Source: Rhodospirillales bacterium | GTDB taxonomy: Bacteria > Pseudomonadota > Alphaproteobacteria > Rhodospirillales > Defluviicoccaceae | Assembly: GCA_050329575.1 (NCBI GenBank) | Contig: JBHJOP010000039.1 | Location: forward strand, 15,812 to 79,811 | Length of the DNA stretch: 64,000 bases | Direction: 5' to 3' | Part shown: piece by piece, positions 11,357 through 54,510 of the stretch | Numbering within the stretch: the stretch's first letter is position 1 | Layout of the letters: every line of letters begins with the position of its first letter | Position numbers and translations under genes: made by a program | Notes under the pieces: generated by a model | Database searches by the model: none | Told to the model about the DNA's origin: nothing | What the model saw: only the letters and a program-made list of their open reading frames with translations

Positions 11357-11379
11357 TGGTGCACGACGCCGTCGGCGCC

Positions 11380-16956: not shown

Positions 16957-17207
16957 TGGCCCTGGTTCTGGCGCGCGCGATCATGGGACCGACGGTCTAT
17001 GATCGGATCCTGGCGGTCAACGCCTTCGGCACCATGACCGTGGTGCTGATCGCGGTGTTCGGATTTCTGGTCGGCCGTCCGGAGTTCCTCGACATCGCCC
17101 TCGTCTATGCGCTGATCAACTTCATCGGCACCATCGCGGTGACGAAGTACGTCAAGTTCGCCCATCTCGGCGCCCCGGTCGACGAGGGTGACTGGGAAGA
17201 AGTGTAG
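16920..17207 (+). CDS. mrpF: Mrp/Mnh antiporter subunit F
   Basis: 95 aa. RAIMGPTVYDRILAVNAFGT...LDIALVYALINFIGTIA. Confidence 0.85.
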   Translation: MFAAAALAVLLVMALVLARAIMGPTVYDRILAVNAFGTMTVVLIAVFGFLVGRPEFLDIALVYALINFIGTIAVTKYVKFAHLGAPVDEGDWEEV

Positions 17208-17545
17208 TGGCGTTGCTGCTCGACGTTCTGAGCTGGGCCTGCATCGCCGGAGGTGCGGCGTTCGCCATCATCGGCGCGGTCGGCATCCTGCGGCTACCGG
17301 ACGTGTTCGCCCGAATGCACGGTGCCGGCGTCGTCGAGACCCTGGGTGCCGGGTTGATCCTCGTCGGCCTGATGCTGCAGGCCGGCCTGTCGCTGATCAC
17401 CATCAAGCTGGTGCTGATCGTCGCGTTTTTGCTGTTTACCAACCCGACCACGACCCACGCGCTGGCACGGGCGGCGCTGAACGGCGGCGTCAACCCGCTG
17501 ATCGAACCCAAGGAGAAGAGCGGAGGCGGACGATCGGAAGTCTGA
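17207..17545 (+). CDS. mrpG: Mrp/Mnh antiporter subunit G
   Basis: The GTG start shares 1 nt with the mrpF TAG stop. GAVGILRLPDVFARMHGAG...NPTTTHALARAA. Confidence 0.85.
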   Translation: MALLLDVLSWACIAGGAAFAIIGAVGILRLPDVFARMHGAGVVETLGAGLILVGLMLQAGLSLITIKLVLIVAFLLFTNPTTTHALARAALNGGVNPLIEPKEKSGGGRSEV

Positions 17546-17664
17546 TCGATATCGCGCTGCTGCTGTTCATGGCAGTCACCGGCCTGGCGATGGTGTGGCT
17601 GCGCAACCTGTTCGCCGTGGTCATGATGTCGGGGATCTTCAGCCTGTCGGCGGCGACGCTGTAA
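17542..17664 (+). CDS. N-terminal half of a DUF4040 (MbhD / MrpA-C-terminal-like) domain, ended by TAA
   Basis: (L)IDIALLLFMAVTGLAMVWLRNLFAVVMMSGIFSLSAATL, then TAA at 17662-17664. A possible CTG start at 17542 overlaps the mrpG stop (CTGA); the first ATG is at 17569. Confidence 0.45.
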   Translation: MIDIALLLFMAVTGLAMVWLRNLFAVVMMSGIFSLSAATL

Positions 17665-18096
17665 GTGGTTCTCGACGCCGTCGACGTCGCCTTCACCGAG
17701 GCGGCGGTCGGCGCCGGCATCCCCACCGTGCTCGGGCTGGCCACTCTCGCGGTGGTCGGGACCGAGCTGGAGAAGCGGCAGACGCGCAGCTTCGTCGGAC
17801 CGGTGCTGATCGTGTTGATCACCGGCGCGGCGTTGATCTACGGCACCCTCGACATGCCCCACTACGGCGATCCGTCCGCCCCCATCCATCACCACGTCGC
17901 CCCCCGCTACATCCAGGACTCGGGTCGGGAGGTGGGCGTTCCCGACATCGTGACATCCGTGCTCGCCAGCTATCGCGGCTACGACACTCTCGGCGAGGCG
18001 TTCGTCATCTTCACGGCCGCCGCCGGCGTGCTGGTGCTGCTCGGTCGAGGCCGCCGGCGCGGCCGCCAGGGTCCCGACCAGGAAGGTCTCGAATGA
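17665..18096 (+). CDS. C-terminal half of DUF4040 fused to an MnhB-N-terminal-like segment (MbhE-like)
   Basis: It is in the same frame as 17542-17664 and begins with the GTG immediately after the TAA. VLDAVDVAFTEAAVGAGIPTVL continues the DUF4040 consensus, and SYRGYDTLGEAFVIFTAA is the MnhB-type motif. Confidence 0.7.
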   Translation: MVLDAVDVAFTEAAVGAGIPTVLGLATLAVVGTELEKRQTRSFVGPVLIVLITGAALIYGTLDMPHYGDPSAPIHHHVAPRYIQDSGREVGVPDIVTSVLASYRGYDTLGEAFVIFTAAAGVLVLLGRGRRRGRQGPDQEGLE

Positions 18097-18530
18097 AACG
18101 CAAGGCAGCGCTGCGCGTCACTGCCAAGGTGCTGATCCCGCCGATCTTGCTGTTCGCCCTCTATGTCCAGTTCCACGGCGACTTCGGACCCGGCGGCGGC
18201 TTCCAGGCCGGCGTGATTTTCGCTTCGGCGTTCATCCTGTATGCACTGCTGTTCGGCGTCGCCAATGCCCGTCGGGTCGCACCGGCCGGGGTGGTGCGGG
18301 CGACCCTCGCCCTCGGCGTCCTGCTTTACGCTGGCGTCGGATTCGCCAGTCTCGTGTTAGGCGGGCCCTACCTCGACTATTCGATCCTCGCCCACGATCC
18401 CGTCCACGGCCAGCATCTCGGCATCATGCTGATCGAATTCGGGGTCGGCACGACGGTTGCTTCGGCGATGATTACCATCTTCTTCATCTTCGCGGGCCAA
18501 GACCCGCGGATCGGACGCGAAGAGCGCTGA
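18093..18530 (+). CDS. mrpB: Mrp/Mnh antiporter subunit B
   Basis: The ATG overlaps the upstream stop (ATGA). LYVQFHGDFGPGGGFQAGVIFASAFILY. Confidence 0.85.
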   Translation: MKRKAALRVTAKVLIPPILLFALYVQFHGDFGPGGGFQAGVIFASAFILYALLFGVANARRVAPAGVVRATLALGVLLYAGVGFASLVLGGPYLDYSILAHDPVHGQHLGIMLIEFGVGTTVASAMITIFFIFAGQDPRIGREER

Positions 18531-18533
18531 GCG

Positions 18534-18890
18534 ATGGGCGGGCCCGGGCTCTACAACTATTGGATCGTCGTCGTTTTGATGATGATCGGCTTTTTCGTCG
18601 TCATCGCCCAGGGCAATCTTGTCAAGAAGATCTTCGGTCTCAACGTCTTCCAGGTCGCGGTCTTCGTCTTCTACATTTCGATGGCGAAGGTGGAGGGTGG
18701 CACCGCACCGATCCTGGACGACCGAATCGAGATCTATTCCAACCCCCTGCCCCACGTGCTCATCCTCACCGCCATCGTCGTCGGCGTCGCCACCATGGCG
18801 CTCGGGCTGGCATTGGTGGTGCGCATCCGCGACGCCTACGGCACCATCGAGGAGGACGAGATCGAGCAGCTAGAGGGCGATACCCCTTGA
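18534..18890 (+). CDS. mrpC: Mrp/Mnh antiporter subunit C (NuoK-like)
   Basis: 118 aa. NLVKKIFGLNVFQVAVFVFYI...PLPHVLILTAIVVGVA. Confidence 0.9.
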   Translation: MGGPGLYNYWIVVVLMMIGFFVVIAQGNLVKKIFGLNVFQVAVFVFYISMAKVEGGTAPILDDRIEIYSNPLPHVLILTAIVVGVATMALGLALVVRIRDAYGTIEEDEIEQLEGDTP

Positions 18891-20368
18891 TCTCGCCGCA
18901 TCTGCCGGTGCTGCAGGTGGTGGTGCCGCTGATCGCGGCCCCGGCGTGCGTGCTGGTGCGTCACGGCACCATCGCCTGGGCGCTGGCCCTCGTCATCACC
19001 TGGTCGACCTTCGCTATCGCCCTCGTGCTACTGGTCGATGTCACCGGGAGCGGCCCGATCTCGTATGCGATCGGCGGCTGGCCGCCGCCGTGGGGTATCG
19101 AATACCGGGTCGACGCCCTCGGTGCCTTCGTGGTGGTGATCGTCAGCGCGGTCGGCGCCGCCGTGATGCCGTTCGCCCGCGCCAGCGTCGCCCGCGAGGT
19201 GGCCGCCGACCGCGTCTACCTGTTCTACACCATGTATCTGCTCTGCCTCGCGGGACTGCTCGGCATCACCGTCACCGGCGATGCGTTCAACCTGTTCGTG
19301 TTCCTCGAGATCTCGTCGCTGTCGTCCTACGTGCTGATCAGTCTCGGCCGCGACCGCCGCGCGGTGACCGCCGCGTTTCGTTACCTGATCCTCGGCACCA
19401 TTGGCGCCACCTTCTACATCATCGGCGTCGGCATGATGTACATGGTGACCGGTACCCTCAACATCGCCGACCTCGCGGAACGGCTGCCGGCGATGGCGGA
19501 CTCGCGCACCGTGCAGATGGCGCTGGCCTTCCTCACCGTCGGCATCAGCCTCAAGCTGGCGCTGTTTCCGCTGCACCTTTGGCTGCCCAACGCTTACACC
19601 TTCGCGCCGTCGGCGGTGACGGTGTTCCTCGCGGCGACGGCGACCAAGGTCGCGGTCTACGTTTTGATGCGGATCGTCTACACGGTGTTCGGCGGGACGG
19701 TCATCTTCGCCGAGATGCCGATCGACGAGATGCTGATGGGGCTCGGCATGTTGGCGATGATCGGCGCTTCGCTGGTCGCCGCTTTCCAGGACAACGTCAA
19801 GCGTCTGCTCGCCTATTCCAGCCTGTCGCAGATCGGCTACATCGTCCTTGGCCTCAGTCTCGCCAATGTTTCCGGACTCGCCGGCGGGATCGTCCACCTG
19901 TTCAACCACGCCATGATGAAGGGCACCCTGTTCGTGGCGATGGGCTGCGTGTTCTACCGGGTGGGATCGGTGCACATCGATGCCCTCGCCGGGGTCGGCC
20001 GGCGGATGCCGTTCACCATGGCGGGAGCCCTGGTCGGCGGGCTGAGCCTGATCGGGGCTCCGCTGACAGTCGGCTTCGTCTCCAAGTGGTACCTGATCAG
20101 GGGCGCCCTCGAGCGCGGCCTGTGGCCGGTGGCCATGGTCGTTCTGGTCAGCGGCCTCCTCGCCCTGATCTACTTCTGGCGGATCGTCGAGGCCGCCTAT
20201 TTTCGCCCGGCTCCCGCGAGCGCCGCCGAGATCCATGAAGCGCCGCTCGGGATGCTGATCTCGCTCGGCGTTCTGGCGGCGGCGTGCATCGGATTCGGCT
20301 TCGATGCGACCCCGACCATGACCATCGCCCTGCAGGCGGCGGCCAGCCTGCTCGGAGCGCAACCGTGA
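18887..20368 (+). CDS. mrpD: Mrp antiporter-like subunit D (NuoL/M/N family), copy 1
   Basis: The TTG start overlaps the mrpC stop (TTGA). 493 aa. FNLFVFLEISSLSSYVL, WLPNAYTFAPSAVTVFL, YSSLSQIGYIV. Confidence 0.85.
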   Translation: MISPHLPVLQVVVPLIAAPACVLVRHGTIAWALALVITWSTFAIALVLLVDVTGSGPISYAIGGWPPPWGIEYRVDALGAFVVVIVSAVGAAVMPFARASVAREVAADRVYLFYTMYLLCLAGLLGITVTGDAFNLFVFLEISSLSSYVLISLGRDRRAVTAAFRYLILGTIGATFYIIGVGMMYMVTGTLNIADLAERLPAMADSRTVQMALAFLTVGISLKLALFPLHLWLPNAYTFAPSAVTVFLAATATKVAVYVLMRIVYTVFGGTVIFAEMPIDEMLMGLGMLAMIGASLVAAFQDNVKRLLAYSSLSQIGYIVLGLSLANVSGLAGGIVHLFNHAMMKGTLFVAMGCVFYRVGSVHIDALAGVGRRMPFTMAGALVGGLSLIGAPLTVGFVSKWYLIRGALERGLWPVAMVVLVSGLLALIYFWRIVEAAYFRPAPASAAEIHEAPLGMLISLGVLAAACIGFGFDATPTMTIALQAAASLLGAQP

Positions 20369-21834
20369 CGCCGCAGCTGGCGATGCCGCTGGCGGTGGCC
20401 TTGCCGCTGGTCGGCGTCGGCCTGATCGTGCTCGCCCGCCACCGGCCCAATCTGCGCGAAGCGATGACGCTCATCACCGCGGTCGCCTTGTTCGCCGTCG
20501 TGCTGTCGATCCTGCCGGCGGTGGCCCGCGGCGAACGACCGCAGGTGGTGCTGTTCGAGATGTTTCCCGGCATCGCCCTCGCCTTCTCGGCGGAGCCGCT
20601 GGGCGCCGCCTTCGCCGCCATCGCCAGCTTCCTGTGGATCGTCACCTCGGTCTACTCGATCGGCTACATGCGCGGCCACCACGAACCGAACCAGACCCGC
20701 TTCTACGTCTTCTTCGCCGTCGCGCTGGCCACCACCATGGGGGTCGCCTTCTCCGCGAACCTGCTAACCCTGTTCACTTTTTACGAAGCACTGACGGTCT
20801 GCACGTTTCCGCTCGTGACCCATGCCGGCACCGACGCGGCACGGCGCGCCGGGCGGGTCTATCTCGGCATCCTGCTCGGGACCTCGATCGGTTTTCAGTT
20901 GTTCGCCATCGTCGCCACCGCGGTGATCGCCGGAACCCTCGACTTCACGGACGGCGGCATCCTCGCAGGCCGTGCCTCCGACGGCATGATTGCGTTTCTG
21001 CTCGCCCTTTACGTCTTTGGGATCGGCAAGGCGGCGCTGATGCCGTTCCACCGCTGGTTGCCGGCGGCGATGGTGGCACCGACCCCGGTCAGCGCCCTCC
21101 TGCACGCGGTCGCGGTGGTCAAGGCCGGCGTGTTCACGGTGCTCAAGGTCACCGTTTACGTGTTCGGCATCGACTTGCTGGCGACGACCGGCGCCGGCCT
21201 CTGGCTCGCCTACGTCGCCGCGGCCACCATCCTGATCGGCTCACTGGTGGCGATGACCAAGGACAACCTCAAGGCGCGGCTTGCCTATTCGACGGTGAGC
21301 CAGCTCTCCTACGTCGTCCTCGGTGCGATGCTGGCGACCGCTGCCGGTGTCACCGGTGGCGCCATGCACATCGCCATGCATGCGTTTGGCAAGATCACCC
21401 TGTTCTTTTGTGCCGGCGCCATCCTGGTCGCCAGCCACGAGACGGAAATCAGCCGGATGCGCGGTCTCGGTCGCCGGATGCCGTTCACCTTCGCCGCCTT
21501 CTTCGTCGCCGCCCTCAGCATCATCGGCCTGCCGCCGCTGGGCGGCGCCTGGAGCAAGTTCGCGTTGATCGTCGCCGCCGTCGATACGGGACAACTGGTG
21601 CTGGTCGCAGTGCTGATGCTCTCGTCGCTGCTCAACATCGCCTATCTAGTCCCGGTGGCGATCCGCGGCTTCCTGCCGGCGCCGGCGACGCCGGCCGGCA
21701 CCGCCGCGACCGGCCTCGCCGAGGCGCCGCTGCTCTGCGTGGTGCCGTTGTGGCTGACCGCGATCGGCTGTGTCGTGCTGTTTTTCTATGCCGACCACCT
21801 CTACGATTTCCTGAGACCGCTGGGGGGAGGATAA
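20365..21834 (+). CDS. mrpD: Mrp antiporter-like subunit D/A (NuoL/M/N family), copy 2
   Basis: The GTG start overlaps the upstream stop (GTGA). 489 aa. LLTLFTFYEALTVCTFPLV, PFHRWLPAAMVAPTPVSALLHAVAVVKAG, YSTVSQLSYVV. Confidence 0.85.
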   Translation: MTPQLAMPLAVALPLVGVGLIVLARHRPNLREAMTLITAVALFAVVLSILPAVARGERPQVVLFEMFPGIALAFSAEPLGAAFAAIASFLWIVTSVYSIGYMRGHHEPNQTRFYVFFAVALATTMGVAFSANLLTLFTFYEALTVCTFPLVTHAGTDAARRAGRVYLGILLGTSIGFQLFAIVATAVIAGTLDFTDGGILAGRASDGMIAFLLALYVFGIGKAALMPFHRWLPAAMVAPTPVSALLHAVAVVKAGVFTVLKVTVYVFGIDLLATTGAGLWLAYVAAATILIGSLVAMTKDNLKARLAYSTVSQLSYVVLGAMLATAAGVTGGAMHIAMHAFGKITLFFCAGAILVASHETEISRMRGLGRRMPFTFAAFFVAALSIIGLPPLGGAWSKFALIVAAVDTGQLVLVAVLMLSSLLNIAYLVPVAIRGFLPAPATPAGTAATGLAEAPLLCVVPLWLTAIGCVVLFFYADHLYDFLRPLGGG

Positions 21835-21840
21835 TCGTTG

Positions 21841-22104
21841 ATGTCCGACGGAGAGCGCCCCGGCGGCCGGAGCACCGAGAAACCGACCATGGCGGGCAAG
21901 CTCGTCTGGGGACTGGGTCTGCTGTGCGCGCTGCTGTTCGGCGCCGACGCCTTCTACGCCAGGCACGGCCAGTTCGCGATCGAGGACGGGTTCGGCTTCT
22001 TCGCGATCTTCGGCTTCGTTGCCTGCGCGGCGGCAGTGCTGGCCGCCCGAGGGGTGCGTCGGCATTTGCAGCGCCGGGAAGACTTCTACGACCGCGATGA
22101 TTAG
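21841..22104 (+). CDS. Small membrane protein embedded in the mrp cluster
   Basis: ATG 21841 follows GGGGGGAGG. 87 aa with two hydrophobic segments (LVWGLGLLCALLFGADAF, GFFAIFGFVACAAAVLAA). Its stop overlaps the next start. Confidence 0.5.
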   Translation: MSDGERPGGRSTEKPTMAGKLVWGLGLLCALLFGADAFYARHGQFAIEDGFGFFAIFGFVACAAAVLAARGVRRHLQRREDFYDRDD

Positions 22105-23785
22105 CGTCAACCCCGGCCTGATCCTCGTCCTCGGTGCCCTTGTGGTGCCGTTGCTGCGCGGCAACGCCCGCGGCGTCGCAATGCTGGCGCTCTCGCTCGC
22201 TGGCCTCGCCTACTCCCTTTTGCTCCCGTCCGGCGGATCCGACCCCGCCTCGTTCCTCGACTTCGATCTGGTGCTGCTCCGCGTCGATCCGCTGGCCAGG
22301 GCGTTCGGCGGCGTTTTCTTCGTTGCCGCCGCGCTGGCGGCGCTGTTCGGGTTTCAGGATCGCGACCCGATCGCGCAAACCGCCGCTCTCGTCTATGCCG
22401 GAGGGGCGATCGGCGCCGTGTTCGCCGGCGATCTGATCACCCTGTTCGTGTTCTGGGAGCTGACCGCGATCTCTTCGGTTTTCCTGGTCTGGGCGGGAGG
22501 GACCGAGCGCGCCTACCGCGCCGGCCTGCGCTATCTGATCGTCCAGGTCGGCTCCGGGGTGATCCTGCTCGCCGGGCTGATCATACACGCTGCGGAGACC
22601 GGCTCGGTCGCCTTCGATCACCTCGGCCTCGCCGGCCCCGGGCCGGTGCTGATCCTGGTCGCCATCGGAATCAAGTGCGCCTTCCCACTGCTCCACGCCT
22701 GGCTCGCCGACGCCTATCCGGAGGCGAGCCCCGCCGGGACCGTGTGGCTGAGCGCGTTCACCACCAAGCTCGCGGTCTACGCCCTCGCGCGGGGCTATGC
22801 CGGCACCGAGATCCTGATCTGGATCGGCGCGGTGATGACGGTGTTCCCGATCGTCTACGCGGTGCTCGCGGACGACCTCCGCCGGGTGCTAGCCCACAGC
22901 CTCAACATCCAGCTCGGCTTCATGGTGGCGGCGATCGGCGTCGGCGGCGCGATGGCAATCAACGGCGCGGTCGCGCATGCCCTTGGCCACATCCTCTACA
23001 AGGCTCTGCTGTTCATGACGATCGGCGCGGTGCTGACGCAGTCCGGCACCGCCAAGGCCTCGGACCTCGGCGGGCTGTGGCGCAGCATGCCGTGGACCGC
23101 TGCCTGTTGCGTCGTCGGGGCGGCCTCGATCTCGGCTGTGCCGCTGTTCAGCGGCTACGCCAGCAAGTCCCTGATCCTTGCCGTGGTCGCCGGCGGCGGC
23201 CACTTCGTTCCGTGGCTGCTGCTGTTGACGGCGTCGGCCGGGGTCATCGCCTACGCCGGGGTCAAGGTGCCCTACGCCGCCTTCTTCGCTCCCGACCGCG
23301 GCCTCCGCTGTTCGGAGGCGCCGTGGAACATGCGGCTGGCGATGGCGATCGCCGCGGTGGCCTGCATTGCCATGGGAGCGCTGCCTCAGATGTTCTACAG
23401 CTTGCTGCCCTACCCAGTCTCCTACGATCCCTACACCGTCGACCACGTCGTTGGCCAGTTGCAGCTCCTGCTGTTCGCCGCCCTCGCCTTGGTCGTGCTG
23501 CAGAGGGCCGGCCTCTATCCGTGGACGGCGGGTCGCGAGTTGGTCGACGTCGATATCCTCTACCGCAGGGGCCTGCCGGCCCTCGCCCGCTGGTTCGTCC
23601 GCAGCTTCGGCCCGATCGACCGGGCGGTGCGGCGAATCACCGTGGATGCGTTCCGGCGTCTGGTGACGCAGATCTACCGCCACCAAGGTCCCGCCGGCGC
23701 CCTGACCCGCACCGCCAACGCCGGCAACATGGTGTTCTGGGTGATAGTGATGCTCGCCGGCTATCTGGTGATCTACTTCGTCTAG
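22097..23785 (+). CDS. mrpD: Mrp antiporter-like subunit D (NuoL/M/N family), copy 3
   Basis: ATG 22097 overlaps the small ORF's end. 562 aa. DLITLFVFWELTAISSVFLV, FPLLHAWLADAYPEASPAGTVWLSAFTTKLAVY. Confidence 0.85.
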   Translation: MISVNPGLILVLGALVVPLLRGNARGVAMLALSLAGLAYSLLLPSGGSDPASFLDFDLVLLRVDPLARAFGGVFFVAAALAALFGFQDRDPIAQTAALVYAGGAIGAVFAGDLITLFVFWELTAISSVFLVWAGGTERAYRAGLRYLIVQVGSGVILLAGLIIHAAETGSVAFDHLGLAGPGPVLILVAIGIKCAFPLLHAWLADAYPEASPAGTVWLSAFTTKLAVYALARGYAGTEILIWIGAVMTVFPIVYAVLADDLRRVLAHSLNIQLGFMVAAIGVGGAMAINGAVAHALGHILYKALLFMTIGAVLTQSGTAKASDLGGLWRSMPWTAACCVVGAASISAVPLFSGYASKSLILAVVAGGGHFVPWLLLLTASAGVIAYAGVKVPYAAFFAPDRGLRCSEAPWNMRLAMAIAAVACIAMGALPQMFYSLLPYPVSYDPYTVDHVVGQLQLLLFAALALVVLQRAGLYPWTAGRELVDVDILYRRGLPALARWFVRSFGPIDRAVRRITVDAFRRLVTQIYRHQGPAGALTRTANAGNMVFWVIVMLAGYLVIYFV

Positions 23786-23857
23786 CGCCACCGGCAGCGG
23801 GGACGGGACGGTGTGGCGGTGGCGAGAACCATCGCCGGGCGGGCCGGTGCCGCCTTC

Positions 23858-24634
23858 TCAACCGCTGCGGGCGGACGGTTTCGGCGCCTCCATCGTCGCT
23901 TCGGGACTCCAACGGGGGTCGGGGGCCTCGGCGAAGACCCGGCGCAGGCCCTCGCTCCAGTGGCGGCTGAGGGCGCTGAAGTAGGGGTCGTCGTCGCGGA
24001 TGCGCTGGTGGCAGGCGATCCGGTACGTGTCGGCCTTGTAGATCACCAGATCGATCGGTGGTCCGACCGAGATGTTGGCGCGAATCGTCGAATCGAACGA
24101 CACCAGCGCGCACTTGGCGGTCTGCACCAGCCCGACGTCGGCAGCCAGCACCCGTTCCAGGATCGGCTTGCCGTACTTGGTCTCGCCCATCTGGAAATAG
24201 GGCGTCCCCTCGCTCGCCTCGATGAAGTTGCCGGCCGGATAGACCAGGAACAGCCGCGGCCGCTCGCCCTTGATCTGGCCGCCGACGATCAGCGAGGCGT
24301 TGAACTCGGTCCCGTGGGCCTGGAAGTAGGTGCCGTCGCGGTCGAACACCGCGCGCAGGAATCCGCCGACGATCTTGGTGGCATCGAACAGGGTATCGAT
24401 CTGGAATAGGCTGCGTCCGGGGTCGTCGGTGCCGAGGCCGCGCTCGACCATGCTGATCACCTCCTGGGTGACCGCGAGGTTGCCGGCGGTCAACAGCACG
24501 ATCACCCGGTCGCCCGACTTCTCGAAGATGAACACCTTGCGGAACGTCGAGACGCTGTCGACCCCCGCGTTGGTGCGGGAGTCGGCAGCGAAGACCAAGC
24601 CCTCGTCGACCCTGATGCCGAGGCAGTAGGACAT
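23858..24634 (-). CDS. Anbu (ancestral beta-subunit) proteasome-homologue peptidase
   Basis: 258 aa. MSYCLGIRVDEGLVFAADSRTNAGVD..FRKVF... is the Ntn-hydrolase beta-subunit pattern. It is the last gene of the ATP-grasp/alpha-E/transglutaminase operon. Confidence 0.85.
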   Translation of the reverse strand: MSYCLGIRVDEGLVFAADSRTNAGVDSVSTFRKVFIFEKSGDRVIVLLTAGNLAVTQEVISMVERGLGTDDPGRSLFQIDTLFDATKIVGGFLRAVFDRDGTYFQAHGTEFNASLIVGGQIKGERPRLFLVYPAGNFIEASEGTPYFQMGETKYGKPILERVLAADVGLVQTAKCALVSFDSTIRANISVGPPIDLVIYKADTYRIACHQRIRDDDPYFSALSRHWSEGLRRVFAEAPDPRWSPEATMEAPKPSARSG

Positions 24635-24678
24635 GGCCCCATTCTAGCCGATTGCGCCGCTCCTGGCGCGGTCGTTGT

Positions 24679-25488
24679 TCATTGGCCCTCACAGACCTGG
24701 ACCCTGACCGACATCTCCTCGATCCCGCCGCCCTTGCGCAGTCCGCGGATCGGACACGCACCGGCATAGTCGAAGGCGACCGCGAGCCGAACGTAGGCGT
24801 CGGTGGCGCAAAGGCCGTTCGTTGGATCGAACGACACCCAGCCGAGATCTTCGATGTAGGCTTCCGCCCAGGCATGGCTGGCGAGACCGGCGCCGCGGCC
24901 GCCGTCGTGGTCGAACAGATAGCCGCTGACGTAGCGGGCCGGCACCCCCAACAACCGGCAGCAGGCGATGAACAGGTGGGCATGGTCCTGGCACACTCCG
25001 AAGCCGTGCTCGAGAGCTTCGGCCGCGGTGCTCTCGACGTCGGTGTAGCCGGGATCGTAGACGATCCGCTGGTGGATCCCCCACATCAGCGCATGCAGGG
25101 CGGCGATCGTCCCCTCGTCGTCCATTCTCTCCACATACGGCTTGGCGAAGTCGGCGACACCGCCCTCGATGCGGGTGTAGCGCGTGTCGCGCAGGAACAT
25201 CGGCGGTGGCAACCCGTCGTCTGCCGGCAGCATGCCGCAGGTGTCGTAGGTCTCGACCTCGCCACGGACCAGCACCGGCACCTCGTCGTGGGGACCGTCC
25301 TGGACCGACACGTGGGCTGTGTTACCGAAGCCGTCGGACCACGGCCGCAGCTTTCCGGGGGTGAGGATCTGCCACGACAGCAGAGCCTGGGATTGATCGG
25401 CCCGCGGCGTCAAGCGCAGGTACTGGATGCTGTGCTGGGCCGGTCGCCCGAACCGGTAGTGAGTTTCGTGCTCGATGGTCAGCTTCAT
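24679..25488 (-). CDS. Transglutaminase-like cysteine protease domain protein (COG1305 type)
   Basis: From ATG 25488 (ATGA overlap with the alpha-E stop): MKLTIEHETHYRF.., GFGVCQDHAHLFIACCRLLGVPARYVSGY, HAWAEAY...WVSFDPTN (Cys-His-Asp triad context). Confidence 0.85.
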   Translation of the reverse strand: MKLTIEHETHYRFGRPAQHSIQYLRLTPRADQSQALLSWQILTPGKLRPWSDGFGNTAHVSVQDGPHDEVPVLVRGEVETYDTCGMLPADDGLPPPMFLRDTRYTRIEGGVADFAKPYVERMDDEGTIAALHALMWGIHQRIVYDPGYTDVESTAAEALEHGFGVCQDHAHLFIACCRLLGVPARYVSGYLFDHDGGRGAGLASHAWAEAYIEDLGWVSFDPTNGLCATDAYVRLAVAFDYAGACPIRGLRKGGGIEEMSVRVQVCEGQ

Positions 25489-26420
25489 GGCACCAACATG
25501 AACTCCTTTCCGATCATGGCGTGCAGCTCGTTGTTGCGGCTGATGAACCCGCCGAGGTAGCGGGGCAGCCCGGAGCGCAGGATGCCGTCGATGCGGTTGC
25601 GCTGCATCTGGTCGCGCGCCTGGGCGGCGAGCAGGGTGCAGGGGGCGTTGCCGCGCAGCTGGCGAAGGATCTCGGTCATCTCGTTGATGCATGCGAGCAG
25701 AGAGCGCGGCATGTCGGCGCGCAGCACCAGCAGTTCCGCCACCCGCTTCGGTTCGATGATCCCCGAATAGACCTCGCGGTAGGCCTTGAAGGCGCTGAAC
25801 GCGCGCAGCAGCGCGCCCCAGCGGTAATAGTCCTCGGCCCCCAGCGGCTTGCCGCTCTTCGGGGTCAGCATCTCCCACTTGATCGCGAGCACTCGGGCGG
25901 AGTTGTCGGCCCGCTCGACGAAGGTGCCGAGGCGGGAGAAGGTGAAAGCATTGCCGCGCCGCATGGTGCCGTAGATGGCGCCGCGAAACAAATGCGAGCG
26001 CTCCTTGACCCAGTCGAAGAACTCGCCGAAGCCCTGGTCGAGCATCCTCGCATACGAGACCCGCTCAAGCTCCAGGTAGGTCTGGTTGATGCCCTCCCAG
26101 ACCTCGGTGGTGAGCGCGGTGCGCGTCGCCCGGGCGTTCTCTCGGGCATTGTGGATGGCCGAGCGGATGCTGTTGGGGTTGTCCGCATCGAGCGCCATGT
26201 AGGCCATCATCGTTGCCGGCGTCACCTCCGCATAGCGGGCGAGGAACTGCGCGCGGTCGCCGCCGAGTCGCAGCGGCGCCTCCCACTCCGACCCGCCCTC
26301 CCCGCCCGCGGCGGGCAGCAGCGACATGTAGTAGGAGCTGGCCAGCAGCCGCGCCATGTTTTCGGCGCGTTCGACGTAGCGGGCCATCCAATAGACGTTG
26401 TTGGCGGTGCGCCCGAGCAT
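25485..26420 (-). CDS. Alpha-E domain protein (COG2307)
   Basis: 311 aa. MLGRTANNVYWMARYVERAEN..., YYRWGALLRAFSAFKAYRE. It lies between the ATP-grasp and transglutaminase genes. Confidence 0.85.
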   Translation of the reverse strand: MLGRTANNVYWMARYVERAENMARLLASSYYMSLLPAAGGEGGSEWEAPLRLGGDRAQFLARYAEVTPATMMAYMALDADNPNSIRSAIHNARENARATRTALTTEVWEGINQTYLELERVSYARMLDQGFGEFFDWVKERSHLFRGAIYGTMRRGNAFTFSRLGTFVERADNSARVLAIKWEMLTPKSGKPLGAEDYYRWGALLRAFSAFKAYREVYSGIIEPKRVAELLVLRADMPRSLLACINEMTEILRQLRGNAPCTLLAAQARDQMQRNRIDGILRSGLPRYLGGFISRNNELHAMIGKEFMLVP

Positions 26421-26423
26421 CGC

Positions 26424-27842
26424 TCAGCCCTCCAGCACCCAGGTGTCCTTGGTGCCGCCGCCCTGTGACGAGTTGACCACCAGCGACCCCTCGCGCAGCG
26501 CGACCCGGGTCAGCCCGCCCGGCACCACGGTCGTTGTCTCGCCGCTCAGCACGTAAGGCCTGAGATCGACGTGCCGAGGGACGATCTCACCGTTGATCAG
26601 CGTCGGGCAGGTCGACAGGCTGAGGGTCGGCTGGGCGATGAACCCGTCGGGATTGGCGAGAATTCTGTTCCGGAACTCAAACCTCGCTTCGGCCGTGCTG
26701 GTCGGTCCCACCAGCATCCCGTAGCCACCGGAGCCGGCGACTTCCTTGACCACCAACTCGTCGAGGTGTTCGAGCACGTAGGCGCGATCGTCCGCCTCAC
26801 TGAGCCTGTAGGTGGGCACGTTGCTGAGGATTGGTTTCTCGCCGAGATAGAAACGGATCATCTCCGGCACGTAAGTATAGACGGCCTTGTCGTCGGCGAT
26901 GCCGGTGCCAATGGCGTTGGCGAGGGTGACGCGGCCGTTGCGGATCACCGACAGCAGGCCCGGCACGCCCAGGGTCGATCCCGGATCGAAAGCGAGCGGA
27001 TCGATGTAGTCGTCGTCGATCCGTCGGTAGAGCACGTCGACCCGTGCCGGACCGTCGGTGGTGCGCATGAACAGGGTGTCGTCGTCGACGAACAGATCGG
27101 AGCCCTCGACCAGTTCGACGCCCATCTGCTGGGCGAGGAAGGCGTGCTCGAAGTAAGCGCTGTTGAAGTGGCCCGGCGTCAGCACCACCACCGTCGGATC
27201 GGCGATTCCCGGCGGCGCCGAAGCGCGCAGGGTGCGCAGCAGCGCCTCGGGGTAATGGTTGACCGGCGCCACCGAGTGCAGCGCGAACAGCTCCGGGAAC
27301 AGCCGCATCATCGTCTCCCGGTTTTCCAGCATGTAGGAGACTCCCGACGGCACCCGCGCGTTGTCCTCGAGCACGTAGAACTCGGTGGCCGACACCCGCA
27401 CCACGTCGATGCCGGCAACGTGCACGTAGACGCCGCGCGGCACGTCCAGTCCCAGCACCTCGGGGCGGAACGCTGGGTTGTTGAGGATCAATGGCGAGGG
27501 AATCCGACCCGCCTTGAGGATATGCTGCTCGTGGTAGACATCCTCAAGAAAGGCGTTGAGCGCCCGCACCCGCTGGCAGACGCCGGTGGAGACCACGTTC
27601 CATTCCTCGGTATCGAGGATCCGCGGGATGACATCGAACGGGATCAGCCGTTCCGCGCCCTCGTCGCTGCCGTACACCGAAAAGGTGATTCCAAGGCGCT
27701 GGAAGATCAGGTCCGCCTGCTGGTGTTTCTCGATCAAGCGCTTCGGAAGTACGCCGTCCAGCCACGCGCCATACGCCCGATAGGCGTTGCGCAGGCCGTT
27801 CTCGCCTCCGTTCATCTCGTCGAACGCCGCGTCGAGCGTCAT
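26424..27842 (-). CDS. Circularly permuted type-2 ATP-grasp protein (COG2308)
   Basis: From ATG 27842; 472 aa. ITFSVYG...ERLIPFDVIPRIL, GIDVVRVSATEFYVLEDNARVPSGVSYMLENR, GGYGMLVGP. Confidence 0.85.
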   Translation of the reverse strand: MTLDAAFDEMNGGENGLRNAYRAYGAWLDGVLPKRLIEKHQQADLIFQRLGITFSVYGSDEGAERLIPFDVIPRILDTEEWNVVSTGVCQRVRALNAFLEDVYHEQHILKAGRIPSPLILNNPAFRPEVLGLDVPRGVYVHVAGIDVVRVSATEFYVLEDNARVPSGVSYMLENRETMMRLFPELFALHSVAPVNHYPEALLRTLRASAPPGIADPTVVVLTPGHFNSAYFEHAFLAQQMGVELVEGSDLFVDDDTLFMRTTDGPARVDVLYRRIDDDYIDPLAFDPGSTLGVPGLLSVIRNGRVTLANAIGTGIADDKAVYTYVPEMIRFYLGEKPILSNVPTYRLSEADDRAYVLEHLDELVVKEVAGSGGYGMLVGPTSTAEARFEFRNRILANPDGFIAQPTLSLSTCPTLINGEIVPRHVDLRPYVLSGETTTVVPGGLTRVALREGSLVVNSSQGGGTKDTWVLEG

Positions 27843-28118
27843 GCCCGCCCGCTCCTGTGAGTGCCACTGAACTCTGGTCCGCCGCCCGGTCGTGAGCAAG
27901 CCACGTGCCAGACCATCCCCAGTGAAGGCCCCTGATCCCTAACCCCTTTTCAAGCATATGGTTGCGGATCGTCCTTAATGCTCGATCGCACGATCACACG
28001 ACGGCCGCGCGCGCTCGGTCTGCACCGAAAAGCATCAAGGAGCGGCTGTTGCCCAAACGATGGGCGAAGCAGCACGATGGCCGCAGATCTCCAAACCGGG
28101 GGGCGCGAAGGCGAACGC

Positions 28119-28150
28119 GTCCGCCCCCGCCTGTTCAGGCGGGGGCGGAC
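28119..28150. other. Perfect 13-bp GC-rich inverted repeat (hairpin) in a 580-bp non-coding gap
   Basis: GTCCGCCCCCGCC (28119-28131), loop TGTTCA, GGCGGGGGCGGAC (28138-28150). There is no U-tract on either strand. Confidence 0.6.
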
Positions 28151-28479
28151 CGTCAGCCACCCCGTGCCGATCGGTCCGCGACGATGCGTCCGGCCGGCGC
28201 TGGTGGGGAGGAGAAAATCGGCCGACGGTGGCAGTCTAGCAGCTTCCGGCCGCCGATCCCACCGACCGGAACCCGCAGATCTTCGCCCCCCTCTCGATAT
28301 CAGGTTGTGGTGCCGCCGGATTGGCGCAACGGGCGTGCGCACGCCCGCTGACTGGCATCGGGGTTCCGTTGCCCGCCGACGGTCGGCGCCATAAACTGAG
28401 ATCGGTACGGGTGGCGCGCGACAGCGCGAGCGGCCAAGCCCACAACCAAGGCCACGACAACGCCAAGGGAGAAACATCC

Positions 28480-29514
28480 ATGTTCGACACGTTGACGAGA
28501 CGGTTGCTGATGACGGTGACGGCGGCGACAATGATCGCCGTGGCGGCCGGCGGCCCCGCGGCGGCGACCGAGGAGCGGTCCTACCTGCTCGCCACCGCCA
28601 CCACCGGCGGCACCTACTATCCCGTCGGCGTCGCGCTGGCGACGCTGACCAAGGTCAAGCTGCAGCCCAAGGAGAAGGTCTCGCTGTCGGCGATCACCTC
28701 CGCCGGCTCGGGCGAGAACATCAAGCTGCTGCGGGAGAACCAGGTCCAGTTCGCCATCCTGCAGGGCCTGTACGGGGCCTGGGCACGCACCGGCGGCGGC
28801 CAGCTGGCGGCCGACGGCCCGCAGAAGAATCTGCGCTCGATCACCATGCTGTGGCAGAACGTCGAGCACTTCGTCGTCCGTTCCGAGCACGCCAAGACGG
28901 GGACCGCCGCCGACCTGGCCAACCTCAAGGGCCGGAAGTTCTCGATCGGCGAGCGCAATTCGGGGACCGAGGGGTCGGGACGCGTCATCCTCGCCGGCCT
29001 CGGTATCGACCCCGACAACACCTTCGACCTGGTGTTCATGGGTTACAACCCGAGCGCCGACGCCCTCCAGAACGGCACCATCGACGGCATCAACACCCCT
29101 GCCGGCGTGCCGGTCGCCGCCGTCACCCGTCTCGCCGCCGCCCTCGGCGACAGGATCCGCGTCCTCGACTTTACCGCCGAGCAGACCGCTGCCGCCAACA
29201 AGGCGGTCGGCGTCGATCTGTGGACCCGTTTCGTCATTCCCGCCGGCACCTATCCCGGCCAGGCGAAGGACATCGAGACCGTCGGCCAACCCAACTTCCT
29301 CGCCGTCCGCGATGACGTCGACGAGGACGCCGTCTACATGATTACCAAGGCGATCTTCGAGAACCTCGGCTTCATCCAGGCGATCCACAAGGCCACCAAC
29401 GAGATGACCCTGGAGCGGGCGATGGACGGGCTGCCGCTGCCGCTGCATCCCGGCGCCGCCCGGTACTACCGGGAACGCGGGCTCGCCATCCCCGCCGCCC
29501 TGATCGCCGAGTAG
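28480..29514 (+). CDS. TAXI-family TRAP solute receptor (second system)
   Basis: ATG 28480 follows AAGGGAGAAAC. The signal peptide is followed by ATATTGGTYYPVGVALA and the C-terminal LHPGAARYYRERGL. Confidence 0.9.
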   Translation: MFDTLTRRLLMTVTAATMIAVAAGGPAAATEERSYLLATATTGGTYYPVGVALATLTKVKLQPKEKVSLSAITSAGSGENIKLLRENQVQFAILQGLYGAWARTGGGQLAADGPQKNLRSITMLWQNVEHFVVRSEHAKTGTAADLANLKGRKFSIGERNSGTEGSGRVILAGLGIDPDNTFDLVFMGYNPSADALQNGTIDGINTPAGVPVAAVTRLAAALGDRIRVLDFTAEQTAAANKAVGVDLWTRFVIPAGTYPGQAKDIETVGQPNFLAVRDDVDEDAVYMITKAIFENLGFIQAIHKATNEMTLERAMDGLPLPLHPGAARYYRERGLAIPAALIAE

Positions 29515-29584
29515 ACCCCGGGAACCGGCGCCGGACGGCCGCCGCTCGGACCGCCGTCCGAACCGCGGCCGTCCCCCGCCCGCA

Positions 29585-31726
29585 ATGAGCGAACCGCCGA
29601 ACGACAGCGGAGGGGGTTTCGACCGGGAGCGCGGCGAAACCGAGGCGACGGTGAGGTCGGCCGCGTCGCCGGCGGGGCGCGTCGTATTCTGGGCCGGGGT
29701 GGTGATCTCGCTCGCCCACATCTATTTCAACACCCTCGGCACCCTGTCGGAGCTGTGGACCTCGGCGATCCACTTCGGCACCTTCGGCTTCCTCTGCGCG
29801 CTGGTGTTTCCGATCGCCCGCGGGGGGCGTTCGGCGATGCGGCGGACCTGGCTCGCCGTCGACATCGTGATCGGCGCACTGGCGCTGGTCAGCGCCGTCT
29901 ACCTGATCGGAGCCGAGCGGGCGTTGTTCGACCGCGGCGTCCGGTTCGCGGCCGGCGACTGGGCCGTTTCGATCCTCGCCATTCTGCTCGCCGTCGAGTT
30001 CACCCGCCGCACCACCGGCTGGATCATTCCGATCCTGATCGTTCTCTCGCTCTCCTACGTCGCTTGGTGGGGCCGCTATGTCATTGGCGTGTTTCAGTTT
30101 CCCGGTCTGACGGTGGAGACGGTGCTGTTCCGCAGCTACTTCGGCGGCGACGGCATGTTCGGGACGATCGCCCGGATTTCATCCACCTACGTGTTCATGT
30201 TCATCCTGTTCGGGGCCTTTCTGGTGCGCTCCGGAGCGGGCGAGTTCATCATCGATCTGGCGCGCTGCGCCGCCGGCCGCCTGGTCGGCGGACCCGGGCT
30301 GGTGGCGGTGCTCGGCTCGGGACTGATGGGTTCGATCTCCGGCTCGGCGGTGGCCAACACGGTGTCGACGGGGGTGATCACCATCCCGCTGATGAATCGC
30401 TCCGGCTTCACCCCCCGCTTCGCCGCCGGCGTCGAGGCGGCGGCGTCGACCGGCGGCCAGCTGATGCCACCGGTGATGGGCGCGGGCGCGTTCATCATGG
30501 CGAGCTACACCCAGATCCCCTACCTCGAGATTGTCGCGGTGTCGGCGCTGCCGGCGATCCTGTACTTCCTGTCGGTGGCGTTCTGGGTGCGGATCGAGGC
30601 CAAACGCCTGGGCATCGTGGCCATCGCCGAGGACGACCGTCCCGCCGTCCTTACCGTGCTGCGCCGGGGCGGGCATTCGCTGATCCCGATCGCCGTACTC
30701 GTCGGTTTGCTGGTCTGGGGCTTCACGCCGACCTACGCCGCCGGGATCAGCATTCTGGCGGTGATCGGCGCCTCGTGGCTGTCGCCGACGCCGATGGGGC
30801 CGCGGGCGATCGTCGAGGCGCTGGCGCTGGGGGCACGCAACATGACCGCCACCGCGGTGCTGCTGGTCGCGGTTGGGTTGATCGTCAACGTCATCACCAC
30901 CACCGGCGTCGGCAACACCTTCTCACTGATGGTCAACGAGTGGGCGGGCGGCAGCCTGATCGTCACCATTGTCCTCGTCGCGCTGGCCTCGCTGGTGCTC
31001 GGCATGGGGCTGCCGGTGACGGCCGCCTACATCGTTCTCGCCACCCTGTCGGCACCGGCGCTCTACGATCTGATCGTCCAGGGGCAGCTGGTCGCGGCGA
31101 TCGCGGAGGGGACCGTCCCGGACGCGGCGCGGGCGGTGCTGATGCTCGTCGGTGCCGATCCGACGCTGCTCGGCACCGCGATGCCCCACGAGCAGGCGGC
31201 ATCGCTGGTTGCCCAGATCCCCGACGCGATGAGAGGGGTGGTGCTGGAACAGACCCTGAGCGCGGCGGTGCTGACCGCGGCACTCCTGTCCGCCCACATG
31301 ATCATCTTCTGGCTGTCCCAGGACTCCAACGTCACCCCGCCGGTGTGCCTGACCGCCTTCGCCGCCGCCGCGATCGCCGGCACACCGCCGATGGCGACCG
31401 GTTTGACCGCCTGGAAGATCGCCAAGGGCCTTTATGTCGTGCCCCTGTTGTTCGCGTACACCCCGTTCCTCGCGGGCGATCCGGCGGGTGCACTCACCAT
31501 CTTCGCCTTTGCCACCGTCGGCCTCTACGCCCTCACCGCGGCGATCTCCGGGTACGCCGAATCGCCCCTTGGCTGGCCGCTGCGGGCGCCGCTGGCGGCA
31601 GCCGGCGTGGTGCTGTTGTGGCCGCTGGCGGTGGAATGGAAGCTGGCGGGTTTGGTCGCCGTCGCGGCGATCGTCGTCCTCGGCAGCCGCTGGTCGCGGC
31701 GCACGGCGGTGCGCCCCGACCGCTAG
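29585..31726 (+). CDS. TAXI-type TRAP transporter fused permease (second system)
   Basis: 713 aa, polytopic. GGPGLVAVLGSGLMGSISGSAVANTVSTG, STGGQLMPPVMGAGAF. Confidence 0.9.
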   Translation: MSEPPNDSGGGFDRERGETEATVRSAASPAGRVVFWAGVVISLAHIYFNTLGTLSELWTSAIHFGTFGFLCALVFPIARGGRSAMRRTWLAVDIVIGALALVSAVYLIGAERALFDRGVRFAAGDWAVSILAILLAVEFTRRTTGWIIPILIVLSLSYVAWWGRYVIGVFQFPGLTVETVLFRSYFGGDGMFGTIARISSTYVFMFILFGAFLVRSGAGEFIIDLARCAAGRLVGGPGLVAVLGSGLMGSISGSAVANTVSTGVITIPLMNRSGFTPRFAAGVEAAASTGGQLMPPVMGAGAFIMASYTQIPYLEIVAVSALPAILYFLSVAFWVRIEAKRLGIVAIAEDDRPAVLTVLRRGGHSLIPIAVLVGLLVWGFTPTYAAGISILAVIGASWLSPTPMGPRAIVEALALGARNMTATAVLLVAVGLIVNVITTTGVGNTFSLMVNEWAGGSLIVTIVLVALASLVLGMGLPVTAAYIVLATLSAPALYDLIVQGQLVAAIAEGTVPDAARAVLMLVGADPTLLGTAMPHEQAASLVAQIPDAMRGVVLEQTLSAAVLTAALLSAHMIIFWLSQDSNVTPPVCLTAFAAAAIAGTPPMATGLTAWKIAKGLYVVPLLFAYTPFLAGDPAGALTIFAFATVGLYALTAAISGYAESPLGWPLRAPLAAAGVVLLWPLAVEWKLAGLVAVAAIVVLGSRWSRRTAVRPDR

Positions 31727-36893: not shown

Positions 36894-37901
36894 TCAGATC
36901 AGTCCGGCCAGCGGCGAGGACGGATCGGCGTAGCGCTTCTTCGGCATCCGGCCGGCGAGGTAGGCGAGACGCCCGGCTTCGACCGCCAGCTTCATCGCTC
37001 GCGCCATCCGGACCGGGTCCCTCGCCTCGGCGATCGCGGTGTTCATCAGCACGCCGTCGCAGCCCAGTTCCATGGCGATCGCCGCGTCGGACGCCGTCCC
37101 GACCCCGGCATCGACCAGGACCGGCACCGACGCCTGTTCGACGATCAACCGGATGTTCACCGGGTTCTGGATGCCGAGGCCGGAGCCGATCGGCGCCGCC
37201 AGCGGCATGATCGCGACGCAGCCCATGTCCTCCAGACGCTTGGCGAGGATCGGATCGTCGGAGCAGTAGACCATCACCTTGAAGTCGTCCTCGATCAGCG
37301 AGTGGGCGGCGGCAAGCGTCTCGGTCATGTTGGGATAGAGGGTCTTCGGGTCACCCAGCACCTCGAGTTTGACGAGGTCCCAGCCGCCGGCCTCGCGGGC
37401 GAGCCGCAAGGTGCGCACCGCGTCGCTCGCGCTGTAGCAGCCGGCGGTGTTGGGGAGATAGGTGTAAGTCCTGGGGTCGACGTAGTCGACCAGCATCGGC
37501 TGGTTGGGATCGGAGACGTTGACCCGACGTACGGCGACGGTGACGATCTCCGCGCCGGAGGCCGCGATTGCCCGCGCCGTCTCAGCGAAATCCCGGTACT
37601 TGCCGGTGCCGACCAACAGCCGCGACCGGTAACGGCGGCCGGCGACGATCAGCGGGTCGTCGTCGGTGCGCGCGTCCTCGACCTCTCGGCCGGTGTCGGG
37701 TGAACCGCCGCCGATGAAGTGGACGATCTCGATGCGATCGCCGTCGGCCACCGTCACCGCGTCGTAGCCTGATCGCGGCACGATCTCCAGGTTGCGCTCG
37801 ACCGCCACCTTCTTCGGATCGAGCCCGATGTCGGCCAGCAGTTGCCGCACCGTGATCGACACGCCGATGAGTTTCGGCTCGCCGTTGAGGGTGATCTGCA
37901 T
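36894..37901 (-). CDS. thiG: ThiS-ThiG fusion (sulfur-carrier domain fused in frame to thiazole synthase)
   Basis: From ATG 37901: MQITLNGEP...[12 protein letters not shown] (ThiS ending in Gly-Gly). It continues without a stop through [17 protein letters not shown] into [19 protein letters not shown]...PNTAGC...VLGD...[12 protein letters not shown] (ThiG). Confidence 0.85.
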
Positions 37902-38052
37902 CCGAATTCCAACTCGCCTGCGGTCGCCGGGCCGACTCGGGAGAGGATCGCCGCCCCGCTGCCGTCGTCGCCTAACATAGTCCAAAGTGGTGGTTACACA
38001 AGACTGCGGCCGTGCTATAAGCATCCCGCTTCGGACCGCCATACCCTCCCGG

Positions 38053-38526
38053 ATGACCCGCACCGTCCTCCTTCTCAACGGCCCCAACCTCAACCTGCTC
38101 GGTACCCGCCAGCCGGAGCTCTACGGCCGCGACACCCTCGCCGCGATCGAAGCCGAGTGCGTCCGCCGTGGCGAGGCGCTGGGACTCGTCGTCGAATGCC
38201 GCCAGAGCAATGCGGAGGGCGAGCTGGTCGGCTGGATCCAGGGCGCACGCGGCCGCTGTGCCGCCGTCGTCATCAACGCCGGTGCCTACACGCACACGTC
38301 GGTGGCGATCTTGGACGCGCTGCTCGCCCTCGAGGTCCCGATCTACGAGGTGCATCTCTCGAACATTTTCCGCCGCGAGCCGTTCCGCCACCATTCCTAC
38401 GTCTCGCGGGCGGCACACGGAATCGTTTGCGGCTTCGGCGGTTTCGGCTATCAGATGGCGATCGAAGCGGCGGCGCGCGCCATTGACGCCGCGGACGGGG
38501 AGCCGGGCAACCGGGATCGGACATGA
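38053..38526 (+). CDS. aroQ: Type II 3-dehydroquinate dehydratase
   Basis: [46 protein letters not shown]. Confidence 0.95.

Positions 38527-52556: not shown

Positions 52557-54510
<1,954 letters not shown>

Follow-up and report, generated by a model that had tools for sequence, protein, structure and literature searches.

The Anbu operon is a widespread bacterial system arranged around a relative of the proteasome, and its function has been unknown since 2008. The four-gene architecture was described in that year by Valas and Bourne (PMC3235984) and restated by Fuchs et al. (PMC5666114). The function of Anbu was given as not known in 2021 (PMC8665760), and the searchable literature to 2026 yielded no newer report of one. 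Thr1 of Pa-Anbu is a reactive N-terminal nucleophile, as revealed by its epoxomicin adduct (PMC5666114), and the sole activity demonstrated for the Y. bercovieri ATP-grasp orthologue is the release of Pi from ATP (PMC6376114). In Pseudomonas putida, PP_2685-2688 are strongly induced by nitrogen limitation and have been assigned to NtrB/NtrC (PMC7801951, PMC8050072; note added in proof in PMC3235984), and a 2025 survey places COG3484 within the predicted sigma-54 regulon of alpha-, beta- and gammaproteobacteria (PMC12316311). Here we describe the Anbu operon of a Rhodospirillales bacterium (Defluviicoccaceae), contained in a 64-kb stretch of contig JBHJOP010000039.1 that is referred to as the window; exact-motif counts cover both of its strands (128 kb). 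An earlier note on this DNA had linked the locus to the architecture of Valas and Bourne and Iyer et al. and had stated that no substrate or role is established for it; the link is correct (PMC3235984, PMC5666114), and the literature agrees with the statement (PMC8665760). With a probability of roughly 0.6, the operon is a nitrogen-starvation-induced module for amide ligation and hydrolysis that is transcribed as one sigma-54 unit, acts on a peptide or protein substrate and contains an Anbu protein competent with Ser1.

From 23858 to 27842, the extent that the earlier note had assigned to the operon, the minus strand carries four consecutive open reading frames (ORFs) in head-to-tail arrangement. 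The first gene encodes a circularly permuted ATP-grasp protein of the COG2308 type (26424-27842, 472 aa), the second an alpha-E domain protein (25485-26420, 311 aa), the third a transglutaminase-like Cys peptidase (24679-25488, 269 aa) and the fourth Anbu, a proteasome beta-like N-terminal nucleophile (Ntn) hydrolase (23858-24634, 258 aa). These identities and the four-gene operon had already been proposed, and the ORF limits, Pfam matches and PDB matches bear them out. The spacing proposed at the same time holds for the ATGA overlap of 4 nt between the alpha-E stop and the transglutaminase-like start and for the 44-nt spacer between the transglutaminase-like gene and Anbu, but not for the first gap, which measures 3 nt (26421-26423) between the ATP-grasp stop and the alpha-E start instead of 4 nt. 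The locus is a standard Rhodospirillales Anbu operon, with ATP-grasp, alpha-E, transglutaminase-like protein and Anbu in this order, and it brings neither a new component nor a new architecture, nor does it render the question of function more testable. Its Anbu and alpha-E proteins are 100% identical to public-database proteins labeled "MAG: Rhodospirillales bacterium", where MAG stands for metagenome-assembled genome and where the Anbu protein is annotated 'peptidase' in NCBI.

The operon had also been described as facing a 580-bp non-coding region that could hold its control elements. The region exists, but it measures 637 nt when ATG 28480 is taken as the start of the divergent TAXI-TRAP receptor gene, the probable choice with its signal-peptide-like translation MFDTLTRRLL..., and 478 nt when it is counted up to 28321, where a TTG start first becomes possible. 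Its suggested role is borne out by a predicted sigma-54 (-24/-12) promoter, TGGCACGTGGCTTGCT (TGGCAC-N5-TTGCT), at 27895-27910 on the minus strand, whose 3' end precedes the ATP-grasp ATG by 52 nt. No other site in the window matches TGGCAC-N5-TTGCW exactly, with 0.02 matches expected, and this one forms the main conserved block in alignments of the upstream region with the closest relatives.

For comparison across genomes, GTDB genomes were scanned with an Anbu alignment and then by tblastn with the four window proteins; this gave 80 loci, 61 of them with enough flanking sequence to be judged. Within 380 nt upstream of the ATP-grasp start, sigma-54 sites with at least 9 of 11 consensus positions occur in 30 of 39 related operons (background 0.047 per 300 nt) and sites with at least 10 of 11 in 22 of the 39 (background 0.007 per 300 nt); they fall 19-112 nt upstream of the start. 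Solo Anbu genes have an upstream site of at least 9 of 11 in 3 of 26 cases. Going by these predicted sites, conservation of a sigma-54 promoter ahead of the first operon gene extends across alpha-, beta- and gammaproteobacteria, mostly without a counterpart at the solo genes. Its occurrence throughout the family strengthens the link to nitrogen limitation known from Pseudomonas putida. We infer that the four operon genes in the window form one sigma-54 transcription unit.

Several observations tie this promoter to nitrogen. Of 40 related operons, 15 have an upstream NtrC-like site (TGCACC-N5-GGTGCA, at least 10 of 12 positions), against about 1.6 expected, an approximately ten-fold enrichment. 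In the window, a candidate site for an enhancer-binding protein, TGATGCTTTTCGGTGCA, is located at 28021-28037 on the minus strand, with its center about 144 nt upstream of the predicted transcription start, which would be a typical distance for an activator. This TGAT-N9-TGCA block agrees with the NtrC consensus in 9 of 12 positions, which is not significant by itself, and in the alignment its footprint is kept in the two closest relatives, as TGATCATTTAGTATGCA in L084 and as TGATCAGTTAGTGTGCA in L089. A sigma-54-like site, TGGCACGGACCGTGCT, is also found at 54058-54073, about 98 nt upstream of glnB (54172-54510), which is followed by glnA (54595-56016) on the same plus strand; it suggests that nitrogen-regulated genes of the organism are transcribed from sigma-54 promoters. 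In Paramagnetospirillum marisnigri (L082, LWQT01000109.1, 1-12750), the whole operon, there with Ser1 in Anbu, lies within a nif cluster, with nifD/nifK on one side and nifE/nifN/nifX on the other; it is preceded by a terminator-like hairpin and has its own sigma-54-like site. Linkage to nif was seen in no other fetched locus. The nitrogen link that enters our interpretation draws on this nif-cluster operon, the glnB site, the enrichment of NtrC-like sites and the placing of COG3484 in the predicted sigma-54 regulon (PMC12316311). By analogy with Pseudomonas putida, NtrC would be the most likely activator, and the operon would be switched on under nitrogen limitation.

The ATP-grasp protein matches PF14403 (CP_ATPgrasp_2) over positions 1-374 of 374 (E 3.7e-164) and PF04174 (CP_ATPgrasp_1) over the full length (E 2e-153), and its residues 6-471 match PDB 3n6x (E 1.5e-214), an uncharacterised structural-genomics entry with the PDB name 'putative glutathionylspermidine synthase'. 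Orthologues that are 62-77% identical occupy the same position in related operons. Its start at ATG 27842 is supported by the Shine-Dalgarno sequence AGGAG, read at 27852-27856 on the minus strand, and by full-length alignment to the relatives and to 3n6x; the GGAGCG core is kept in L084 and L089. In the transglutaminase-like protein both PF08379 (Bact_transglu_N) and PF01841 (Transglut_core) are present, and it aligns to PDB 3isr (E 7e-13) with Cys (GVCQD), His (SHAWAE) and Asp (SFDPT) motifs, which we take to be the Cys-His-Asp catalytic triad of the transglutaminase core. The alpha-E protein matches PF04168 over positions 1-293 of 294 (E 1.8e-86), and its ER motifs YVERAEN and FVERADN (E17/R18 and E169/R170) are invariant across 41 homologues. 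An AlphaFold2 model built with these 41 homologues is all-helical, with a predicted local distance difference test score (pLDDT) of 91 and a predicted template-modeling score (pTM) of 0.90. Foldseek found no structural neighbor of the model in the PDB (top match E 0.12, TM score about 0.2), and a sequence search of the PDB gave no match. The alpha-E domain is accordingly best described as a confidently predicted all-helical fold without a solved structural relative, and the model offers no mechanistic lead.

The Anbu protein is retrieved by phmmer against the PDB with 5loy (2.5e-95), 5nyw (4.7e-77), 5nyj (8.2e-76) and 5lox (2.3e-70), and 5nyf was also matched; the alignments to the solved chains span residues 1 or 2 to about 240 and take in the C-terminal region of the H5 helix, which stabilises the split ring (PMC8665760). 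There is no propeptide, and the N-terminus MSYCLGI aligns with (M)TYC of the solved chains. In every solved Anbu, the catalytic Asp and Lys fall opposite D17 (FAADSR) and K32 (FRKVF) of the window protein, which confirms the retention of these two residues noted before, and the other family-invariant residues are kept as well. The S1 pocket consists of T20, F30, T48, L52 and T55. In Pa-Anbu the Anbu-1 pocket is composed of T20, F30, T48, L52 and S55, and the Anbu-2 pocket is basic (PMC5666114); T55 is likewise found in YbAnbu (PMC6376114). By its pocket residues, the window protein is assigned to subtype Anbu-1. Judged by such alignments, the catalytic motifs of all four operon proteins appear intact, and every feature of an Anbu-1 operon that can be read from sequence is found here except a literal Thr1, a feature that is better read as Thr or Ser.

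In the proposed mechanism, nitrogen limitation would act through an enhancer-binding protein, most likely NtrC, to turn on the sigma-54 operon. The ATP-grasp protein, with alpha-E, would use ATP to make an acyl-phosphate and place an amide or isopeptide bond on a substrate that is a peptide or protein. Such bonds, or the substrate marked by them, would be cleaved by the Cys peptidase and by Anbu as an Ntn hydrolase, and ligation and hydrolysis together would help to recycle amino-acid nitrogen during starvation. Removal of Met would expose Ser1 of Anbu, which would serve as the N-terminal nucleophile in place of Thr1.

A number of points weigh against this mechanism. For no member of the system is a substrate, a product or an interaction with another protein known; purified Anbu proteins failed to cleave standard peptidase substrates, and no complex was recovered when operon proteins were co-expressed or used in pull-downs (PMC5666114, PMC6376114). 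Expression in P. aeruginosa was reported to be unchanged under many conditions (PMC5666114), and in one P. putida data set PP_2685, which encodes Anbu, responded less than PP_2686-2688 (PMC7801951). The NtrC-like site of the window is weak, at 9 of 12 positions, and no sigma-54 activator domain was seen among the 20 annotated ORFs of the window, in a search of the window that was not exhaustive. Co-transcription is read from gene spacing only, and about a quarter of the related Anbu genes are solo.

The main competing explanation is that the module acts on small molecules: the ATP-grasp protein would make a small amide or peptide, such as a gamma-glutamyl or polyamine conjugate or a nitrogen-storage or scavenging compound, which the two hydrolases would release or recycle. 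We regard it as a tentative alternative, clearly less probable than action on peptides or proteins. It draws on 3n6x, which among solved structures is the closest homologue and bears the name of a small-molecule amide ligase, and on the failure of Anbu to cleave standard proteasome peptides, together with its narrow S1 pocket and, in YbAnbu, the occlusion of S2/S3 (PMC6376114). The locus encodes neither an unfoldase nor an AAA+ partner, and control by nitrogen limitation suits metabolite scavenging as well as proteolysis (PMC7801951). The TAXI-TRAP solute transporter is divergently adjacent in the window and in its two closest relatives; yet TRAP genes adjoin the operon in 0 of the 80 GTDB loci. 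Also contrary to a small-molecule function are the close relation of Anbu to proteasome beta subunits, its assembly into large multimers and its binding of epoxomicin and MG132 (PMC5666114), and the transglutaminase-like core is typically directed to proteins or peptides. The ligation and hydrolysis of amide bonds on a peptide or protein substrate under nitrogen starvation is the interpretation we prefer.

The four-gene architecture is frequent but, to judge from the sequenced loci, not obligatory. The order of the window occurs in 29 of the 61 loci that could be judged. A further 11 have ATP-grasp, alpha-E and Anbu with the transglutaminase-like gene downstream or non-adjacent, so that ATP-grasp and alpha-E directly precede Anbu in 40 of 61. 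In about 21, mostly from Comamonadaceae, Anbu has no partner in an operon arrangement; most of these have none within 4.5-7 kb, and a few carry a distant or opposite-strand module. The solo genes of Variovorax, Acidovorax, Ramlibacter, Rhodoferax and Limnohabitans (L046, L052, L054-L056, L058, L060, L061, L068, L070, L071, L078, L080 and others) have no partner gene within 7 kb and no upstream sigma-54 site. Solo genes imply that Anbu has no strict need for the three partners in cis. In L007, Anbu adjoins a divergent paralogous module of ATP-grasp, alpha-E and transglutaminase-like genes on the opposite strand, whose products are 25-33% identical to the window proteins, and L053 has a similar opposite-strand module with an ATP-grasp protein that is 58% identical and two other proteins that are 27-34% identical. 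These two loci indicate that more than one lineage of the three-gene module pairs with Anbu.

The second point of interest in the earlier note was the Ser that follows the initiator Met of Anbu, encoded by TCC at 24629-24631 on the minus strand, where Anbu proteins were said to have Thr. The sequence confirms the Ser, and for the characterised proteins the statement on Thr is correct, as all five distinct solved Anbu sequences have Thr at this position. The substitution stands but is not distinctive, and the note's reservation that Ser might be common at this position in the family holds in part: Ser recurs in 24% of the nearest relatives and in several per cent of the family. Among the nearest clusters at 90% identity, 29 of 119 have Ser and 90 have Thr. 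Ser was found in about 8 of about 100 representatives at 50% identity (those with an intact N-terminus among the best 150), and the GTDB species loci, mostly from beta- and gammaproteobacteria, contain one Ser, in Terasakiella, and 79 Thr. From these counts, Ser appears as a minority state in the family as a whole that reaches about one in four in this Rhodospirillales neighborhood.

The source of the window is a MAG, and a single base change converts ACC to TCC, which would fit an assembly or sequencing error. Such an error is extremely improbable. The three closest clusters, P0002, P0003 and P0040, which come independently from other samples, also have Ser, which argues that the codon is genuine; 25 further clusters share it, and the genomes with Ser include named ones such as Paramagnetospirillum marisnigri and Terasakiella sp. 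A23.

On a rough neighbor-joining tree of 175 full-length sequences, from which the N-terminal columns were left out, parsimony requires at least 10 changes between Thr and Ser, with Thr at the root. The window protein falls within a Ser clade of four members, and another Ser clade comprises nine clusters. In the 175-sequence alignment no second-site change tracks the Ser/Thr state beyond shared ancestry; the largest frequency difference is 0.5. Genes of the Ser type retain the same four-gene operon and the sigma-54-like promoter. From its recurrence, the kept operon and the lack of a tracking column it follows that Ser is real and not special to the window copy. The alignments describe Ser1 as a recurrent natural variant, neither peculiar to this copy nor a sign of altered function, and the nucleophile position of Anbu as naturally polymorphic, Thr or Ser, with many independent switches. 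No mention of this polymorphism was found in the accessible Anbu literature.

Ser1 could nevertheless mark a functionally shifted Anbu, that is, a weakened hydrolase, a scaffold or an enzyme biased toward transpeptidation or ligation like connectase, in which case Ser-type operons would work differently. In favor of such a shift, proteasomes are reported to be strictly Thr and the T1S exchange to cut activity by 40-45% (PMC4792962), every solved and assayed Anbu has Thr, and connectase is an example of the fold acting as a ligase (PMC7980362). We consider the shift improbable, given the interleaving of Ser and Thr forms on the tree with its repeated switches, the want of any other alignment column that follows the exchange, the unchanged D17, K32 and Anbu-1 S1 pocket, and the operon and promoter that Ser-type genes keep.

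One guide to what Ser1 may do is the yeast 20S proteasome. Its beta5-T1S variant has the same Thr-to-Ser exchange at a proteasome-fold N-terminal nucleophile and hydrolyses substrate with Ser1; it is processed, reacts with inhibitors and keeps 55-60% of the activity, a loss put down to the missing methyl anchor (PMC4792962). The yeast exchange is engineered and carries a fitness cost, whereas in Anbu it is natural and recurrent, and position 3, which anchors the Thr1 methyl, is Thr or Ile in beta5 but an invariant Cys in Anbu. The retention of D17, K32 and the invariant residues, the natural recurrence of Ser and the active yeast variant together argue for the competence of Ser1, which by analogy is probably a tolerated, somewhat slower alternative to Thr1. 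In bacteria, a Ser nucleophile has been reported for another protease of the proteasome family, CodW of Bacillus subtilis, an HslV homologue (Kang et al. 2001, as cited in PMC7468587). CodW differs in belonging to the HslV subfamily, in needing an AAA+ partner and in the place of its Ser, which lies within an extension of the N-terminus; doubts about its status have also been raised (PMC7468587).

Proteasomes are said to use Thr strictly (PMC4792962), and set against this, the repeated, unpenalised exchange in Anbu raises the speculation that the physiological reaction may do without the Thr-methyl-anchored geometry on which efficient hydrolysis of peptide bonds depends. In that case Anbu might act as a slow and specific amidase, a de-tagging enzyme or a transpeptidase working with the ATP-grasp protein under nitrogen starvation. 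This is an unlikely proposal. If it were true, the search for the substrate could start from natural Ser/Thr pairs and from the sigma-54 and nif context. The Thr/Ser polymorphism, the family-wide sigma-54 promoter and the alpha-E fold are modest general points, and none of them settles the function of the system.

The genes around the operon are of local distribution. The window contains two TAXI-type TRAP transporters, at 28480-31726 (plus strand) and 3894-7775 (minus strand), each consisting of an NMT1_3 receptor and a fused DctM permease; the former is divergent from the operon and adjacent to it also in L084 and L089. A cluster for an Mrp/Mnh-type multi-subunit cation/proton antiporter (17192-23785, plus strand) converges on the 3' end of Anbu. 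In L081, a Ser-type relative, the Mrp/Mnh cluster (6062-11932) follows Anbu on the same strand, and the opposite orientations imply that the operon is inverted relative to this conserved neighbor. Like TAXI-TRAP genes, Mrp genes are found beside the operon in none of the 80 GTDB loci, and both recur only in the closest relatives. Farther away, an ORF at 36894-38093 (minus strand) matches ThiS in residues 68-130 and ThiG in residues 150-394; it is either a thiS-thiG fusion or the product of an over-extended start that merges two genes.

The upstream region also contains a GC-rich hairpin or palindrome at 28119-28150 (minus strand in the operon sense), a perfect inverted repeat of 15+15 nt that is unique in the window and is preceded by the conserved GGGGTGGCTGAC. 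In a comparison of only three sequences, both closest syntenic relatives, L084 and L089, keep the stem; it shows one compensatory change and U.G wobbles for which pairing is restricted to the operon-sense strand, and each of the three sequences has a different loop. The hairpin has no Rfam match and no associated conserved ORF, and a pattern scan of metagenomes gave five matches, of which L089 alone is a true homologue and the others are due to chance. A 24-bp near-palindrome, CAACGGGCGTGC/GCACGCCCGCTG, at 28327-28350, about 130-150 nt upstream of the TAXI receptor ATG, is a possible operator of the divergent transporter gene. An Rfam scan of 23000-29000 in E-value mode returned one chance-level match, and neither the 5' leader nor the 44-nt spacer between the transglutaminase-like gene and Anbu folds more stably than shuffled sequences. 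Between 23500 and 28600 there was no sigma-70 promoter-like site, and terminator-like sites occurred at chance level. A 193-aa ORF at 27950-28531 was considered as a hidden small gene and rejected: its translation is Arg/Pro-rich and non-coding-like, and it is not among the ORFs with a coding-type GC content at third codon positions. Nor did tblastx of the 637-nt region against a syntenic relative reveal a frame-consistent conservation that would betray a hidden gene. The 216-aa Joint Genome Institute (JGI) call in L084 is probably spurious too.

Among the described systems, the solved Anbu proteins (5lox, 5nyw, 5nyj/5nyf and the designed consensus 5loy) are closest to the window Anbu. The alignments are nearly full length, with E values of 1e-70 to 1e-95, and the lack of a propeptide, Asp17, Lys32 and the C-terminal region are common to all. 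The window protein differs by Ser1, where the solved proteins all have Thr1, and by a C-terminal tail that is longer by about 15 residues. At the level of the operon, the counterpart is PP_2688-PP_2685 of P. putida KT2440. P. putida is a gammaproteobacterium, whereas the window organism is an alphaproteobacterium with a weak NtrC-like upstream site. The two operons encode the same four families, an ATP-grasp protein, a hypothetical or alpha-E protein, a transglutaminase-domain protein and a proteasome beta-like protein (PMC7801951, PMC8050072, PMC3235984), and to the nitrogen-limitation induction and NtrB/NtrC assignment of the P. putida operon corresponds, in the window, a consensus sigma-54 promoter.

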